This document shows positions 14,562 to 43,269 of a stretch of 60,909 nt of DNA, in pieces. This DNA is from a virus. Taxonomy: Duplodnaviria; Caudoviricetes. The DNA lies in IMG/VR virus record IMGVR_UViG_3300048819_000038, positions 1-60,909 of that record. One strand, 5' to 3'. Positions within the stretch are counted from its first letter, which is position 1. The number at the start of each line of letters is the position of its first letter. A model generated the notes under the pieces. The model was not told where the DNA came from. It saw only the letters and a list, made by a program, of their open reading frames with translations, and searched no databases. The position numbers were made by a program, and so were the translations under genes.

Positions 14562-14862
14562 CAGAGAGCCAGAAGATGCAGAAGAGGCAACAGAGCGATA
14601 CCTTCGTGCCATACACGCCATGCAGACCGGGGTGGCGTATATGCAAGAGTACGACCAATCGGAGAAGGACATCAAGCACATTCGCGTTGGGGTGAATTCC
14701 GCTCTTGTCAGCGGTGCAGCACTTGCCCAACTCCTTATCGAGAAAGGCGTTATCACAAGAGAGGAGTACCACACCGCGCAAGCAGACGCAATGGAAGAAG
14801 AGGTAGCACGGTACGAGAAGATGCTGGAAGAGAAGCTAGGAGTGAAGATAACCCTACTATGA
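14548..14862 (+). CDS. conserved phage hypothetical protein
   Basis: HAMQTGVA...KH.RVGVN...LLIEKGVIT motif. Confidence 0.7.
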   Translation: MRMNNREPEDAEEATERYLRAIHAMQTGVAYMQEYDQSEKDIKHIRVGVNSALVSGAALAQLLIEKGVITREEYHTAQADAMEEEVARYEKMLEEKLGVKITLL

Positions 14863-15755
14863 CTACCGAACTACAAGTCACGATGGATCTTCTTCCGGAC
14901 AAGCCCCTGAAGGGGAAGTTCGTGAAGAGTTACCCACTCGACAAGATACCGGACAATGAGTTTATCATCGGGGAGGATGCCCCGGAGTCATTGGTAGACT
15001 CCATCTTTCGACTAGGGGTGCTTACGCCTATCTTCCTGATCGAACTTGACAAACCACCGCATCCGGATATTGCGGTGATGATCGCCGCCGGGAGGAGGAG
15101 GATTAAGGCGGCAAGACGGATAGGACTTACCGGGATTCCTGCGATTGTATTTCCTCCTGGAACTGGCAGAGAAGTACTCACCCTGGTAGAAAACCAGGAA
15201 CGCAGTATGAATGCTGCCGCCGACTTGGAAGCGATAGAGACGCTGATTAAAGAGCGTCACGCGACCGAACACGACATCCGACTGGCAACAGGAATGCCTA
15301 TACAGACGATCCGTGCCAGGATGAAACTCACAACCCTGATACCGCCTCTAAAGGATCTCCTGAAGTCAGGAGGACTTCCAATCCAACTTGCAGAACGTAT
15401 CTGCAAGTTACCAGTCGTAGAGCAGAACCGATTTATCGTGGAGAGTGAAGGAGAGATAACCAATAAGACCGTGAAGGAGTTCTTCCAGGCAAAGAAGGAG
15501 AGTGCGGTATCAGGACTGCCAGAGAGCATGTTCAGTGAACCCGAACTTGAATCTTCCAGTCCTCCTGAAGAAGTAACCAATTTGGTTACTTATGGTGAAC
15601 CGTACTATGAAGAACCAGTTCGTGTTTACCCTATCCTTATGTCCGATGAGAAGTACGTAAGGTTCCTTCAAGAAAAGGAACCAGACAGGGCGGATATACT
15701 TATCATCGGAAGCGCATTGAAGTTCTACGCGGTACTGAAAGGATACAAGGAATGA
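14859..15755 (+). CDS. ParB/Spo0J-like protein (CTPase fold plus HTH)
   Basis: L.DSI...GVL.PI...IAAGRRRIKAA...IPA...VENQER, then an HTH. Confidence 0.85.
   Translation: MTTELQVTMDLLPDKPLKGKFVKSYPLDKIPDNEFIIGEDAPESLVDSIFRLGVLTPIFLIELDKPPHPDIAVMIAAGRRRIKAARRIGLTGIPAIVFPPGTGREVLTLVENQERSMNAAADLEAIETLIKERHATEHDIRLATGMPIQTIRARMKLTTLIPPLKDLLKSGGLPIQLAERICKLPVVEQNRFIVESEGEITNKTVKEFFQAKKESAVSGLPESMFSEPELESSSPPEEVTNLVTYGEPYYEEPVRVYPILMSDEKYVRFLQEKEPDRADILIIGSALKFYAVLKGYKE
15573..15589. repeat. 17-bp palindrome copy 8 (inside the ParB-like gene)
   Basis: GTAACCAATTTGGTTAC, encodes VTNLVT. Confidence 0.95.
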
Positions 15756-16061: not shown

Positions 16062-17582
16062 ATGTGGAACGATCAACAAGAGGCTATCTTCTCACATATC
16101 GAATGGAGGGATGGGGACCTTATTGTTGAGGCAGATGCAGGGACAGGGAAAACCTCAACTATTACCGAAGCGCACCATCGTATGTTTCCAGAGATACGGG
16201 ACAACTCCGTATCTCTGTCTTTTAACAGGCACATCAATGAGGAACTGAAACTTCACATGCCGGAAGGCGTTCGTGTGAATACCATCCACTCCATCGGTAT
16301 GTCTGCCCTCCTGAAACACTTTCACCCTTCCTCGAATAGATATGTGGATAAGTGGAAGTATGTCAACCTTGTTGATGAGGCTTTCGAGTCCTTAGATGTC
16401 AAGGGTAAGCCTACAGAACTATGGAGGTGGAAGGAGGTATGCGTTGACCTGATTGGAAAGTCTCAACTCACACTTTCCGACACAGACCCCATGAACCTGA
16501 TGATTACCATGATGCACTTCGGGATAGACTCGACAATGGATCTAGGGCTGATGTCCAGGATCGTGACCGGGGCTATTCGCATAGGGTCGGATATGTGCAA
16601 CCGTGTGGTAGACTTCAATGACATGGTGCATCAAATCGCCATAGGGAGAGTTCGGGTTGAGAAGTACCTATCCGTTGCAGTAGACGAGATGCAGGACATG
16701 AACCCGGCGCAACAAGCTGTTGTATTTCACCTGTTAGATGTCGGAGGTCAAGTGTACGGATTTGGAGATTCTTTCCAATCCATCTATGGGTTTGCGGGGG
16801 CAGATACGATAGGGATGGAGACGTTCCGTGTACGACTCAATGCGAGTACCCTGCCTCTCACGGTATGCTATAGGTGTCCTAAGAGTCACCTAGTTCTGGC
16901 AAGGAAGCTGGTTCCCTCCATCCAGGATGCACCAAATGCCAGGGAAGGGATTGTCGAAGTACTGGCAAGCCAATGGGCTATCTACCAGAACTTTGGTTGG
17001 TCGCACAGTGATCTCTGGATATGCCGAACGACGGCTCCTCTGATAGAACACTGCCTCAACTTAATCCAGGCAGACATCCCCGCAAATGTGATTGGAAAGG
17101 ATATGGCAAAAGGGATGGCACGCGCCCTATCGGAAATATCCGACATAAAAGGCTTTACTTTCCGTGAGTTCCCCCGGTACTTAAACGAATGGCTGGACAA
17201 GAAAGTGGAGTCCTTTCGTGAGCAACGCAGGAATGAACTGGCTATCTCTGCGATGGAAGATACGGCACGGTCGCTTATGCATATCCATCGGAGGGGAATA
17301 GCGGAGTACAATGTCCGTAGTGTGAAGGGACTAAAGAACTACGCGGACACACTCTTTAAGAAAGACCCCATCATCGGTCAGGTATCCCTGGCAACGATCC
17401 ATCGCTCTAAGGGACTACAAGCCGATAACGTTTACGTTCTTAACCCGGAACAGTTGCCGCACAGCAAGGCGAAACTGGAATGGGAGCAAGAGCAAGAGAT
17501 GCACCTGGAATACATTGCGTATACCAGGAGTAAGAACGCCCTGTACTTCATAGGGCAGATGCCAAAAGGGAGGAGTGAATGA
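16062..17582 (+). CDS. UvrD/Rep-family SF1 helicase
   Basis: ADAGTGKT, VDEMQD, GDSFQSIYGFAGA, YRCP, TIHRSKGL, YIAYTRSK. Confidence 0.92.
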   Translation: MWNDQQEAIFSHIEWRDGDLIVEADAGTGKTSTITEAHHRMFPEIRDNSVSLSFNRHINEELKLHMPEGVRVNTIHSIGMSALLKHFHPSSNRYVDKWKYVNLVDEAFESLDVKGKPTELWRWKEVCVDLIGKSQLTLSDTDPMNLMITMMHFGIDSTMDLGLMSRIVTGAIRIGSDMCNRVVDFNDMVHQIAIGRVRVEKYLSVAVDEMQDMNPAQQAVVFHLLDVGGQVYGFGDSFQSIYGFAGADTIGMETFRVRLNASTLPLTVCYRCPKSHLVLARKLVPSIQDAPNAREGIVEVLASQWAIYQNFGWSHSDLWICRTTAPLIEHCLNLIQADIPANVIGKDMAKGMARALSEISDIKGFTFREFPRYLNEWLDKKVESFREQRRNELAISAMEDTARSLMHIHRRGIAEYNVRSVKGLKNYADTLFKKDPIIGQVSLATIHRSKGLQADNVYVLNPEQLPHSKAKLEWEQEQEMHLEYIAYTRSKNALYFIGQMPKGRSE

Positions 17583-17739
17583 AGTATAGAGCATTCAAGA
17601 AAGTCTACAGGAAGGCGAAGCTAAGCGTTGAAAGAAAAAGTACGCAAAACGTAGAGAAGGCGGTCTACGTACAATATCGCTATATTACTAGCAAGTGGTT
17701 TGATAGGTACTGGCCTAGAATCATAAAGGAGAAATCGGT

Positions 17740-17985
17740 ATGATAACAGAAACACACCCACGCGCCCTGTTTACCATCGTGAAGGAGATCCGGTCGGACT
17801 GGAAAAAGCCCTACTTCGGGGCTGTGCCTTATATGCAAGCAATGGATTGTATGTATGACATGAACTCGAAATTCGGGGCCGACAGTGCAAAAGAGATCGT
17901 GCTACGCTTCCTGTCCAATGCTTCTACTTGGAGAGGTGAGACGGCACGACGCATAAAGGCGGAACTCAAGGAGATGGTGAAGTGA
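17740..17985 (+). CDS. conserved phage hypothetical protein
   Basis: YFGAVPY...FLSNASTWRGETARRIKAEL. Confidence 0.75.
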   Translation: MITETHPRALFTIVKEIRSDWKKPYFGAVPYMQAMDCMYDMNSKFGADSAKEIVLRFLSNASTWRGETARRIKAELKEMVK

Positions 17986-18278
17986 CAGAAGTAGATCGCA
18001 TCAACCAGGAACAGGGATGGATCGCTCATCGGTGGACGGAAGACGGTCAAATAATCACACTGTTTCCTCTGACGTTTGGTAGGACTCGGATTGGGATTGG
18101 CTCGGATATGTATTACATCCGAGACATGTGGTGATTTTCGGACTTGGAAAGCGGTCTGCTTTCCTACCTACTTTGGAACCCGGAAGTAGATCCAGAACCG
18201 GGAGGATGGATGCGACATCCACCGTCAGGACGACAAAGACCAGAAGGCGATGCAAGCAAGGAGTACGTTTATGAGTGA
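17982..18278 (+). CDS. putative selenoprotein (TGA at 18132-18134, codon 51)
   Basis: ORF exactly fills the intergenic gap; DMW*F then EPGGWMRHP.SGR; SECIS-like hairpin 11 nt downstream. Confidence 0.7.
18146..18164 (+). promoter_or_regulatory. bacterial SECIS-like hairpin
   Basis: GGAAAGC-GGTCT-GCTTTCC, starting 11 nt after TGA. Confidence 0.65.
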
Positions 18279-19068
18279 GGAAGTAGAGCAGGTAGAACTA
18301 GAGGAAATTGACCTGGGTAGTCGGAAGATGCCAGGGTTCGTCAAGAAGGGTCTTGTCGCCGTTCAGGGTGGTCAATACTATCTCCGAGCGGCATACCGGA
18401 TCTTATGGATGCGTGAGGAAAGAGGGGACAGTTGGACGATACAAACCCAGGTGTTCTACTTCGACCCGGAGAAACAGTTTGTTATTTTCAAGGCGACTAT
18501 ACTGGACGAAACCGGCAGGGTAATCGCCACGGCACACCATGAGGAGAAAGCCGGTAAGCTGCCCTTCATTCGCAAGGCCGAGACAGGAGCCGTCGCAAGA
18601 GTGTTAGGTATGTGTGGGTACGGCACTCAGTTTGGGGATATGGACGAAGACGCAGACGGTACGATAGAGAATACCGCAGATGGGGCGCATGGCAGTAATC
18701 CGAAGGGTGCTCAGGCCGCAACTCCTGCGGTAAACACAGGTACTAAGAACTGTCCTTCGTGCGGTGCTCCTGCCGGAAAGCCACACGCCAGCAAGTGCGA
18801 TGTGGTACACAAGGATGCCTCACAGTCGCGTCAGGATGACCATACAGCGTCCAAAGACGAACCAATGGCAACTCCATCACAGACGGAAAGACTGGCTCAG
18901 ATTTACTTCGATCTAGGAATTACGGTAGATTGGGATTCCGAGAAAGGAATGTCGGCAAAGGAGTACAGAGAAAGAGCACACGCCGTCGCACCGGAGTATG
19001 AGGCATACAAGATACGCAAGAGGAACGAGACACCCGCGCAGAGGGCCGAAAGGAATGAGTTGAAATAG
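18271..19068 (+). CDS. single-strand annealing protein (Rad52/Sak-like)
   Basis: Y...R..W.RE...KAETGAVAR.L...GYGTQF, then a disordered C-terminus; next to Gam-like and helicase genes. Confidence 0.65.
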   Translation: MSEEVEQVELEEIDLGSRKMPGFVKKGLVAVQGGQYYLRAAYRILWMREERGDSWTIQTQVFYFDPEKQFVIFKATILDETGRVIATAHHEEKAGKLPFIRKAETGAVARVLGMCGYGTQFGDMDEDADGTIENTADGAHGSNPKGAQAATPAVNTGTKNCPSCGAPAGKPHASKCDVVHKDASQSRQDDHTASKDEPMATPSQTERLAQIYFDLGITVDWDSEKGMSAKEYRERAHAVAPEYEAYKIRKRNETPAQRAERNELK

Positions 19069-19388
19069 TGGAGAGTATGAAAAGGATCGTTGGGGAATGG
19101 GCAGAGGAGACATTCCCAAAGTCTACCAACGCTTCGATATGCAACCACCTGGAAAGGGAGGTGAGGGAACTGGAAGAACTATGCATGATACCGGATAAGT
19201 ACACGGATAGTTTTACTCTCAGAAAGGAGTTGTCAGAAGAGATAGCGGACTGCGTGTTACTACTCATGCACCTCGCGCACAGAAATGGAATCGACATAGA
19301 CAATGCCGTGTTGAGTAAACATGCTGTCAATGTCAGCAGAAAGTGGGGTGAGCCGGATAAGTTCGGGGTTGTAGAACACATCAAGTAA
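19068..19388 (+). CDS. MazG-like nucleotide pyrophosphohydrolase
   Basis: HLEREVREL...EEIADC...K..VN..RKW. Confidence 0.8.
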   Translation: MESMKRIVGEWAEETFPKSTNASICNHLEREVRELEELCMIPDKYTDSFTLRKELSEEIADCVLLLMHLAHRNGIDIDNAVLSKHAVNVSRKWGEPDKFGVVEHIK

Positions 19389-19395
19389 ATAAAAC

Positions 19396-19424
19396 TTGAC
19401 AACAGGGTGACAATAGTATATACT
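19396..19424 (+). promoter_or_regulatory. sigma70-type promoter
   Basis: TTGACA-17 nt-TATACT, with a palindrome 11 nt downstream. Confidence 0.8.
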
Positions 19425-19434
19425 GATTCCCTTA

Positions 19435-19451
19435 GTAACCAAATTGGTTAC
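19435..19451. repeat. 17-bp palindrome copy 9 (operator position)
   Basis: GTAACCAAATTGGTTAC. Confidence 0.95.
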
Positions 19452-19487
19452 GGGACGTGAAAACAAGCAAGCGGAAAGAGGAAAAGA

Positions 19488-20402
19488 ATGTCTGACGTAG
19501 TAGTGCTAGACCCGGTACAGGGCGTGCTGATGCAGGGGGAGTTGACGGAGAAAGAGGTCGTCAAGCGCAGGAAGGCTATCCAGGGAGCACTGGATATGTC
19601 CAAGAAATACCTCCTCGAACTCAAAGAGCAAGACAACTGGAAGAAAGATCCCATCGTCAAGCAGAACAACATATCCACGATGGAGCAGTATTGGAATGTG
19701 GCGTTTGGGTATTCCAAGCAGCACGGCTACCGGCTGATCCAAGAGCAGGAGGTTCGGGAGTCTATCGAAGACGAGAGCCTTCAGCCGGAGAATGAGGGTC
19801 AAGCGAGAGTCCTGGCAACCATACCTGCGGCCTATCGCGAGAAGGTGATGCGGAAAGCGTATGACATCGCACCGGAGCCTGCGAACAAAAAACTGCCAAA
19901 GAAGATTTCGGCTAAGGTGATCGAGCAGGCTATGTCGGTAGTCAAGGCAGAGTACCCGGAAGAGTTCCCGGAAACTGTAATCGTTCCAGTGAAAACGGAA
20001 ACTACCAAGGCGCACACGAACGGCACTGGTTCAGGGGTGTTAAGTGCCAAAGAAGAGGAACGGGAGGGTGCGGACTATATCATGGATGATGAGGTCTACA
20101 AAAACACTCCCAAACTCCTGGATGTGGTACTTGTAAAGAGCAGGAAGGATCTCTTCGCTTTCAAGTTCCGATACCCTGGTGGGGATGTTGGCTATGAGTA
20201 CTTCCGCAGTTCAGTCAAAGGACTCTTCAAGCCGTCAGTGGACACTGCCGTACCGAATACGATGACTAGGGCTGAGTCATTCGTAAAGGATGCGGAGATG
20301 ACGCTGAGTGAGTCTGACTTCGCCGCCGATAAGAAGGCGGACGCCGGTATCTTCGACAAGGATGAAACCGAAGAAGACCCACTGGCAGAAGTCGTATCCT
20401 AG
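19488..20402 (+). CDS. putative DNA-binding protein (DUF3102-like N-terminus)
   Basis: L.ELK....K...TMEQY....FGYSKQ..YRLI...PENEGQARVL. Confidence 0.55.
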   Translation: MSDVVVLDPVQGVLMQGELTEKEVVKRRKAIQGALDMSKKYLLELKEQDNWKKDPIVKQNNISTMEQYWNVAFGYSKQHGYRLIQEQEVRESIEDESLQPENEGQARVLATIPAAYREKVMRKAYDIAPEPANKKLPKKISAKVIEQAMSVVKAEYPEEFPETVIVPVKTETTKAHTNGTGSGVLSAKEEEREGADYIMDDEVYKNTPKLLDVVLVKSRKDLFAFKFRYPGGDVGYEYFRSSVKGLFKPSVDTAVPNTMTRAESFVKDAEMTLSESDFAADKKADAGIFDKDETEEDPLAEVVS

Positions 20403-42792: not shown

Positions 42793-43269
42793 TCACTGTC
42801 TTTTCAATGTATTGAATATATTTATCAATACAGAGATCGTTGCGATGATGCCGACTATGACCAACCAGAGAGAGTGTGCGCCTGTATTCTTACCCTCACT
42901 CCTCTCGACACGAACGATAAGTGCATCTATTTTGTCCGAGTTTGTTTGGTACTTCTGTTCCATCTGAGCACGTACAGAATTGATTATAGCCTCTGTTTCC
43001 GACCTGGACATAAAGGTATTTGTCTGGTCGGACAGCGCAGCACGGAACTCATTCACAGAGTCGAAACGCTTATTGTTGGCAATTTCTGCCTTTTCTACAG
43101 CACTCTGCTGTGCATCCAGCGCAAGTTTCGTTAATCTATCCTGCTGCTCGATTGCTAGTCTTAGTTCAGCCCTGTAGTCTCGTAGCCTGTCGTCGCCAAG
43201 TTTGTCCCGATCATGGAACATCTGCAACATCTTCTCATGCAGTGTCTCTATGTTCCATCCTTCGGACAT
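42793..43269 (-). CDS. coiled-coil protein with a C-terminal TM segment
   Basis: AVEKAE....RF.SVNEFR..L.D motif and hydrophobic C-terminus. Confidence 0.65.
   Translation of the reverse strand: MSEGWNIETLHEKMLQMFHDRDKLGDDRLRDYRAELRLAIEQQDRLTKLALDAQQSAVEKAEIANNKRFDSVNEFRAALSDQTNTFMSRSETEAIINSVRAQMEQKYQTNSDKIDALIVRVERSEGKNTGAHSLWLVIVGIIATISVLINIFNTLKRQ

Follow-up and report, generated by a model that had tools for sequence, protein, structure and literature searches.

In bacterial selenoprotein genes, the UGA codon for selenocysteine (Sec) is directly followed, within the coding sequence, by a hairpin, the Sec insertion sequence (SECIS). In Escherichia coli K-12 fdhF, UGA-140 is followed by 11 nucleotides (nt) and then by GGTTGCAGGTCTGCACC, which contains the upper hairpin. 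Passages of Atkins et al. 2021 (PMC8310308) describe selenoproteins from cells and from two poxviruses, the only two poxvirus proteins that these passages name, and place the fowlpox SECIS within the coding region. Parts of another article (PMC6145125) report tRNA-SeC genes in Basilisk-like Bacillus phages. Here we analyze a gene with an in-frame TGA on a 60,909-nt stretch of tailed phage DNA (IMG/VR record IMGVR_UViG_3300048819_000038; the whole stretch is called the window below). We consider it highly probable that the gene encodes a phage selenoprotein, decoded by the host SelB via a compact fdhF-like SECIS, and that it belongs to a large and apparently undescribed family with Sec or cysteine (Cys) at the same site.

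The proposed selenoprotein gene has the fdhF arrangement of TGA, 11 nt and hairpin. Counting the T of TGA as nt 1, GGUC occupies nt 22-25 and GGUCUGC nt 22-28 in both genes, in agreement with the anatomy of fdhF given in an earlier note on this DNA. In contrast to fdhF, the window gene is located on a phage, encodes an unrelated protein, lacks the bulged U17 and the lower stem, and has a presumed rather than known SelB binding site. Like the glutathione peroxidase selenoproteins of poxviruses (molluscum contagiosum, fowlpox), it would be a viral gene that borrows the Sec machinery of the host. However, the poxvirus enzymes are host-captured, have a known function and use the eukaryotic SECIS/SBP2 system, whereas the window gene belongs to a phage-specific family and has a bacterial-type SECIS candidate. 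With the Basilisk-like phages, as far as the cited parts of the source describe them, the common point is the link between phage and Sec: there a tRNA prediction without a selenoprotein gene, here a candidate selenoprotein gene without tRNA-Sec.

Two groups of relatives can be compared with the window gene. Cultured jumbo phages (Caulobacter CcrBL9 gp257c, Brevundimonas Kabachok_01010 and a Sinorhizobium phage) encode hypothetical proteins of the same family and length, with the motifs D.W-C-Y and EP.GW.RHP.SGR, which have 28-32% identity with the window protein and contain TGC or TGT instead of TGA. The main branch of TGA forms, from soil, groundwater and peat metagenomes and from IMG/VR, has the pattern PLTFGRARI...DD.W-U-YD.P.AAVAAL...GWMRHP (U for Sec). 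It shares with the window the TGA codon, the family and a hairpin with NGUN loop in the same codons, and the window falls into its clade. It differs in that the loop starts at nt 24 rather than nt 22 and the stem is made of alanine (Ala) codons; its proteins are approximately 40-45% identical to the window protein.

In the window, the frame that starts at the GTG contains 50 codons, the in-frame TGA, 47 further codons and a second, terminating TGA (Table 1). The GTG and the stop codon of the preceding gene (17740-17985) overlap in the sequence GTGA. Between this gene and the following one (starting at 18250 or 18271), the open reading frame (ORF) listing contained only the 50-codon ORF 17982-18134. 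Exactly 11 nt after the TGA, the sequence GGAAAGC / GGTCT / GCTTTCC can form a hairpin with a loop that begins 18 nt after the UGA (nt 22). The GTGA overlap, the in-frame TGA, the translation and the hairpin had all been described in the earlier note and are present in the sequence. The hairpin is the minimum free energy structure of the local RNA (RNAfold) and occupies codons +5 to +11 with the loop in +7/+8, the same codons as the family hairpin, although it is built from S-G-L and not from A-V-A.

Table 1. Coordinates of the candidate selenoprotein gene, its proposed recoding signals and the gene downstream
Feature	Position	Strand	Remarks
Whole gene, 98-residue protein	17982..18278	+	GTG start; proposed Sec codon = residue 51; terminating TGA 18276-18278; homologues span both halves
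Shine-Dalgarno-like AAGGAG	17968..17973	+	8 nt before GTG 17982; read from the sequence, function presumed
In-frame TGA, proposed Sec codon, residue 51	18132..18134	+	Aligns with the family Cys; at least 147 relatives also have TGA here
Proposed SECIS hairpin	18146..18164	+	7-bp stem 18146-18152 / 18158-18164; loop GGUCU 18153-18157
Downstream gene	18271..19068	+	Likely start ATG 18271; ATGAGTGA overlap with the end of the candidate selenoprotein gene; context, outside the recoding device

Judged by their homologues, both halves of the frame are one protein. Using phmmer to compare the read-through product with 1.84 billion representative sequences, we found 617 matches at an E-value of 1e-3 or below (79 at 1e-10 or below), most of which cover approximately residues 10-96. 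Matches from tblastn and phmmer cross the TGA, and the Brevundimonas phage proteins align to residues 9-96. Residue 51 was read from an alignment of the query and 124 of the 150 listed matches, after 26 fragments, fusions and partial matches had been dropped by eye; the query carried C at this site, which biases the alignment slightly toward Cys. Of the 124 matches, 70 have C, 23 have D, 6 have E and 5 have Q; H and T are found in three each and R and W in two each, and singletons, including one G, make up the remainder. The two W and the G could be TGA codons that a gene caller translated under code 4 or 25. A scan of IMG/VR for the corresponding Cys pattern (TGY) gave 62 stretches, all of them family members and all aligned at the TGA codon. 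The TGA is thus paired with Cys and not with tryptophan (Trp), as the earlier note had expected. The family motif given there also proved accurate: in the first six homologues with available DNA, a Cys codon was present at the site within D-R-W/Y-C-F/Y, and EP.GW.RHP.SGR followed downstream.

Predicted-protein databases cannot hold whole proteins of the TGA form. Two short entries, from different sources and with one contig each, betray such forms. P0042 (43 amino acids) is 71% identical to residues 10-50 and ends exactly at ...IRDMW, and P0114 (40 amino acids) is 68% identical to residues 60-96 and represents the downstream half, called as a separate short ORF. A word-index protein search found no protein of near length, and only P0042 among shorter proteins; DNA patterns for a window-like N-terminus and for P0114 had no matches in IMG/VR. 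In a search of 50,697 records of cultured phages, family members turned up as uninterrupted ORFs in Caulobacter, Brevundimonas and Sinorhizobium phages alone, and no TGA form was seen (the codon itself was inspected in CcrBL9 and Kabachok).

TGA recurs at the same codon in many related genes. We scanned DNA for TGG-TGA, followed after 60-84 nt by the back-translated motif GW.RHP.SGR.R. Metagenome contigs contained at least 119 such stretches, and 114 of those listed were full family members. IMG/VR viral contigs contained 34, of which 33 were true members (the other, L156, matched out of frame). GTDB species genomes contained seven, with three true members in metagenome-assembled genomes (MAGs), two from Planctomycetota and one from Candidatus Peribacteria. 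Metagenomes and IMG/VR together provide at least 147 further genes with W-TGA-Y/F at this codon, and the TGA forms comprise at least 134 distinct proteins, all with a frame that is open as far as the usual C-terminus of the family. In the 119 listed metagenome stretches, the gap between TGA and motif was 63 nt (69 cases), 69 nt (42), 72 nt (5), 73 nt (2) or 71 nt (1), and 116 were in frame. Five stretches were dropped because they were out of frame (L103, L114, L117), had an unrelated translation (L009) or had a stop directly after the TGA (L068). Conservation extends beyond the scanned pattern: among the 114 listed metagenome members, the C-terminal E-Y motif is kept in 112, the tail after the TGA measures 45-48 codons in 112, and 97 have the motif F/Y-G-R..R at the N-terminus. 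One metagenome contig (WNGI01000009.1, 132,733 bp) has two different copies of the TGA form (L008 and L069).

TGA is an ordinary stop codon in these phages and would be recoded at this codon only, since it ends many genes in the window and in the relatives. It terminates 24 of the 98 window ORFs of at least 100 amino acids, including the neighbouring helicase gene and the gene directly upstream, and a second TGA ends 84 of the 114 listed metagenome members. These counts rule out a global reassignment of TGA.

In a tree of 303 distinct sequences (FastTree; 123 TGA forms, with X at the site), the window is found within a clade of 170 tips that contains 112 TGA forms, 33 Cys forms and 8 forms with aspartate (Asp), although the support of the node is weak (0.45). 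Because of this weak support, the tree serves for placement only: the window is a member of the Sec-rich branch, and Sec and Cys forms are interleaved. Eleven TGA forms are located outside this clade (L018, L026, L037, L057, L059, L062, L086 and others). This outside branch has the motif ...RMFNTI.T.G...QHW-U-F/Y-ETPEAA, and several of its members have no simple hairpin. It is possible that Sec use arose or was retained more than once.

The hairpin is a recurrent feature of the TGA forms. The best simple hairpin was determined for 132 distinct TGA-form segments (window included) and 56 distinct Cys-form segments. In 95 of the 132 TGA forms, the loop starts at nt 24, and the most frequent loop sequences are GGUC (62), AGUU (16) and CGUGC (7). 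In the Cys forms, the positions of the best hairpins scatter, and no loop recurs. A strict rule (a perfect stem of at least 5 bp and an NGUN(N) loop, 4-5 nt long with GU as its second and third nt, that begins at nt 21-26) applies to 108 of the 132 TGA forms and to none of the 56 Cys forms. We also aligned 131 TGA forms without gaps and measured covariation in the 8-bp stem. The score was 0.327, compared with 0.182 ± 0.011 in shuffled alignments (none of 500 reached 0.327) and at most 0.148 in slid controls. One base pair, in which both partners are synonymous third positions of Ala codons, illustrates the pattern, with GC in 36 sequences, CG in 30, UA in 19, AU in 9, UG in 6, GU in 4 and other combinations in 27. 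Covariation is stronger support for an RNA structure than the contrast between Sec and Cys forms, as coding provides no reason for wobble positions to be complementary. Together with the recurrence of TGA and the conserved frame, it favours the Sec-containing phage protein that had been postulated in the earlier note.

The hairpin of the window itself is unexpected only in combination with this particular TGA. Bacterial SECIS elements in the range of bSECISearch have G/U in the apical loop and a loop roughly 16-37 nt after the UGA, and both the window and the family hairpins fit this description. Markov-shuffled windows contained approximately three GGTC-loop hairpins each (stem of at least 6 bp, both strands), and 0.165 per window had any TGA 21-23 nt upstream, so that a hairpin in conjunction with some TGA is not rare on its own. 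For one pre-specified TGA, the shuffle counts translate into a chance expectation of approximately 3 × 3 / 121,818, or 7e-5. The three other GGTC-loop hairpins in the window (at 43026, 44550 and 27840) were rejected as selenoprotein candidates because no TGA is present at the right distance.

These observations suggest the following course of decoding. Positions 17982-18278 would be a single gene for a single-domain protein of approximately 98 residues with Sec as residue 51. On arrival of the ribosome at the UGA, the hairpin would present its GGUC(U) loop, and the host SelB with Sec-tRNA(Sec) would bind to it and deliver Sec to the UGA, after which translation would continue to the true stop. 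Most of the family has Cys at this site, a large minority would have Sec, and some members have Asp or glutamate (Glu). As no sel genes or tRNA-Sec were found in the 60.9 kb, we propose that the phage must rely on a host with selA, selB, selC and selD. Among the three MAGs with a TGA form, the two from Planctomycetota have selB and tRNA-Sec above cut-off (the search covered these two components). No host could be assigned to the window phage, since a terminase search gave only weak matches (25% identity, to Rhizobium and enterobacterial phages). No Sec, suppressor or UCA-anticodon tRNA was detected in the window or in the scanned parts of the 33 IMG/VR loci with a TGA form. A tRNA-Cys(GCA) is located within a few kb of the TGA-form gene in three loci (L135, 11139-11212; L140, 10722-10799; L152, 5752-5826).

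The TGA is identical in two public peat-metagenome assemblies, which have no differences from the window at positions 17500-19000 (word depth 12.7 and 14.2). The earlier note had raised TGC, TGT or TGG as alternative readings of the codon; none of them appears in these assemblies, which are contigs and possible sources of this DNA. In a peat metatranscriptome (X3), a 266-nt contig corresponds without difference to positions 18390-18655 in the downstream gene, and coverage excludes 17982-18278. The phage may thus be active in the peat habitat, although DNA carry-over is possible.

Several observations weigh against a selenoprotein. Under the strict rule, 24 of the 132 TGA forms do not have a simple hairpin. 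The hairpin contrast between Sec and Cys forms is confounded by descent and is largely a contrast between clades, as the Sec-rich clade includes no more than two Cys loci with DNA (L183, L208). Relatives tolerate Asp, Glu and glutamine at the site, so that a product with another residue might work as well. In the window, the folding energy is unremarkable (z-score -0.72 for 61 nt; -2.1 for 40 nt, a value reached by 7 of 200 shuffles; for E. coli fdhF, the z-score is -1.29). The stem consists of seven perfect pairs and lacks a bulged U, while the E. coli SelB needs such a U on the 5' side of the upper stem. A scan of positions 17900-18400 against Rfam found nothing at an E-value of 10 or below. 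A covariance model (R1) built from 131 family hairpins gives the window hairpin only 5.3 bits (E-value 8.4), the sixth of seven weak matches; R1 also misses E. coli fdhF, and therefore describes the Ala-codon stem of one branch rather than SelB sites in general. The Candidatus Peribacteria MAG (L129, contig of 62,514 bp) has the TGA form without selB or tRNA-Sec above cut-off, and may represent a mis-binned phage contig, an incomplete MAG or a counter-example. A search of the 60.9-kb record found no selB, and a tRNA-Met was the only tRNA. Finally, both peat assemblies are possible sources of the window DNA and consist of contigs rather than raw reads.

One alternative is a UGA that a near-cognate or suppressor tRNA reads as an ordinary residue (Trp, Cys, glycine, or Cys from a SelB-delivered Cys-tRNA), with a hairpin that only slows termination. 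SelB-delivered Cys-tRNA has been proposed for some deltaproteobacteria. Relatives with C, D, E, Q, H or T at the site, and the two W and one G proteins, indicate that a normal residue could be accommodated, and parts of Mukai et al. (PMC5389517) put tRNA-Sec-like Cys tRNAs on record and mention phage tRNAs of unusual shape. Nevertheless, we regard such read-through as improbable. The TGA pairs specifically with Cys, which is the classic Sec signature, the loop motif and the spacing of the hairpin are those of a SelB-binding SECIS, and the tRNA searches described above detected neither a suppressor nor a Sec tRNA. Suppression would also need to be site-specific, because 84 of the 114 listed genes end at another TGA.

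A broken gene would need just a single change from TGC or TGT to TGA, or an assembly error, and would leave a 50-residue stump with a chance hairpin; shuffled windows have a GGTC-loop hairpin near some TGA at a rate of approximately 0.16, and the family covariance model fails on the window hairpin. It is, however, very unlikely that the gene decayed in this phage. The TGA is followed by 47 open codons that lead to a normal C-terminus and keep the conserved motifs, the downstream gene begins before the read-through frame has ended, and the 71%-identical P0042 stops at the same W. Moreover, the window belongs to the Sec-rich clade, two assemblies agree, and a hairpin at this very TGA is expected only at approximately 7e-5. 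We give as little credence to the production of two separate polypeptides, in which the UGA would mostly terminate translation after 50 amino acids and the downstream half would be made separately (from TTG 18144 or GTG 18128) or rarely; the UGA would then act as a selenium- or growth-dependent switch, and placing Sec in an active site would not be its main purpose. ORFs at 18144-18278 (TTG, in the read-through frame) and 18128-18274 do exist, and bacterial Sec insertion is usually inefficient, so that a truncated product is expected in any case. But the homologues are single proteins, both halves contribute strands to a single domain in the structural model, the family alignment has no conserved start codon after the TGA, and two products would leave the covarying hairpin and the pairing with Cys unexplained. 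For these reasons, we prefer insertion of Sec at residue 51.

The structural model fits a protein with a single domain. AlphaFold2, applied to the query and 124 matches, predicted one compact domain (mean predicted local distance difference test 94.8, predicted template modelling score 0.84) with strands contributed by both halves and residue 51 inside strand 48-52. Database comparisons provided no name. NCBIfam had no match for the protein, and Pfam had none for P0001 and one chance-level match among 125 members. A Foldseek comparison of the AlphaFold2 model with the PDB found no fold neighbour (best E-value 0.45). phrog_24748, of unknown function, matched only at an E-value of 0.0076, a BFVD fold search returned only one uncharacterised phage protein, and an atlas search with the homologue P0002 returned only unnamed, mostly viral clusters. 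In the alignment, W76 is invariant near site 51, and R78, R84, R86, G89 and D90 are nearly so. The exchange of Sec, Cys, Asp and Glu at a single buried-strand position beside W76 and these near-invariant residues suggests that residue 51 is a catalytic nucleophile or acid, or a metal ligand; most likely, it would act as a nucleophile or as part of a redox or metal site.

The record, with an estimated completeness of approximately 57%, encodes a Mu-type portal, an S49 protease, a terminase-like protein, a UvrD-like helicase and a MazG-like pyrophosphatase, as in a tailed phage. A megablast search of positions 17000-20000 against cultured phages gave no match. The gene of interest sits in a replication and nucleotide-metabolism module that includes the UvrD-like helicase (16062-17582), a MazG-like dATP/dGTP pyrophosphohydrolase (19068-19388) and a weak ParB_N match (14859-15755). 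These neighbours do not accompany the family elsewhere: in a comparison of 221 loci, not one of 19 window proteins was found again next to the family gene, and the largest neighbour cluster common to family loci comprises 14 loci. As neighbours are not conserved, gene context does not point to a function. For the downstream gene, ATG 18271 is a more likely start than 18250, judging from its AAGGAG (18258-18263), which is located inside the K-E-Y codons of the candidate selenoprotein gene. An overlap with the start of this gene had been noted earlier and is present via the likely ATG, but the accompanying label "SSAP" was not borne out, as the only matches to the gene product (18271-19068) were two PHROGs without an assigned function (phrog_11717, phrog_27776), with none in Pfam or among PDB sequences. 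The ATGAGTGA overlap suggests that translation of the downstream gene is coupled to ribosomes that have passed the UGA.

A literature search found no report of a bacteriophage selenoprotein. The words "phage" and "virus" are absent from the main text of BSepDB (PMC13326102; 111 families), which places its family tables in supplements, and from the text of deep-Sep (PMC12013277). An unnamed "hypothetical protein" family of earlier metagenome surveys could overlap with the present one. The earlier suggestion of a new selenoprotein family is in keeping with the lack of a Pfam or NCBIfam model and of a published description. In our estimation, the chances are about even that this is the first natural bacteriophage selenoprotein family, a widespread group of proteins of approximately 95 residues that lacks any known relative in fold and in which the key residue switches between Sec, Cys and Asp when phages pass from hosts that possess the Sec machinery to hosts that lack it, or back.

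If Sec insertion takes place as proposed, a whole class of phage genes is mis-annotated, because gene callers truncate or split them, as in P0042 and P0114. The compact hairpins (19 nt in the window) would widen the natural variety available to SECIS models, and the many natural Sec/Cys/Asp triplets on a small and confidently modelled fold would be well suited to studies of the advantage that Sec confers. The combination of UGA and SECIS would imply a host with selA, selB, selC and selD, and would narrow host prediction for uncultured phages; it would thus be a host-range marker readable from sequence. It would also mean that phages tap the selenium metabolism of the host during infection, and would raise the question why a phage accepts inefficient, selenium-dependent decoding for an accessory protein.

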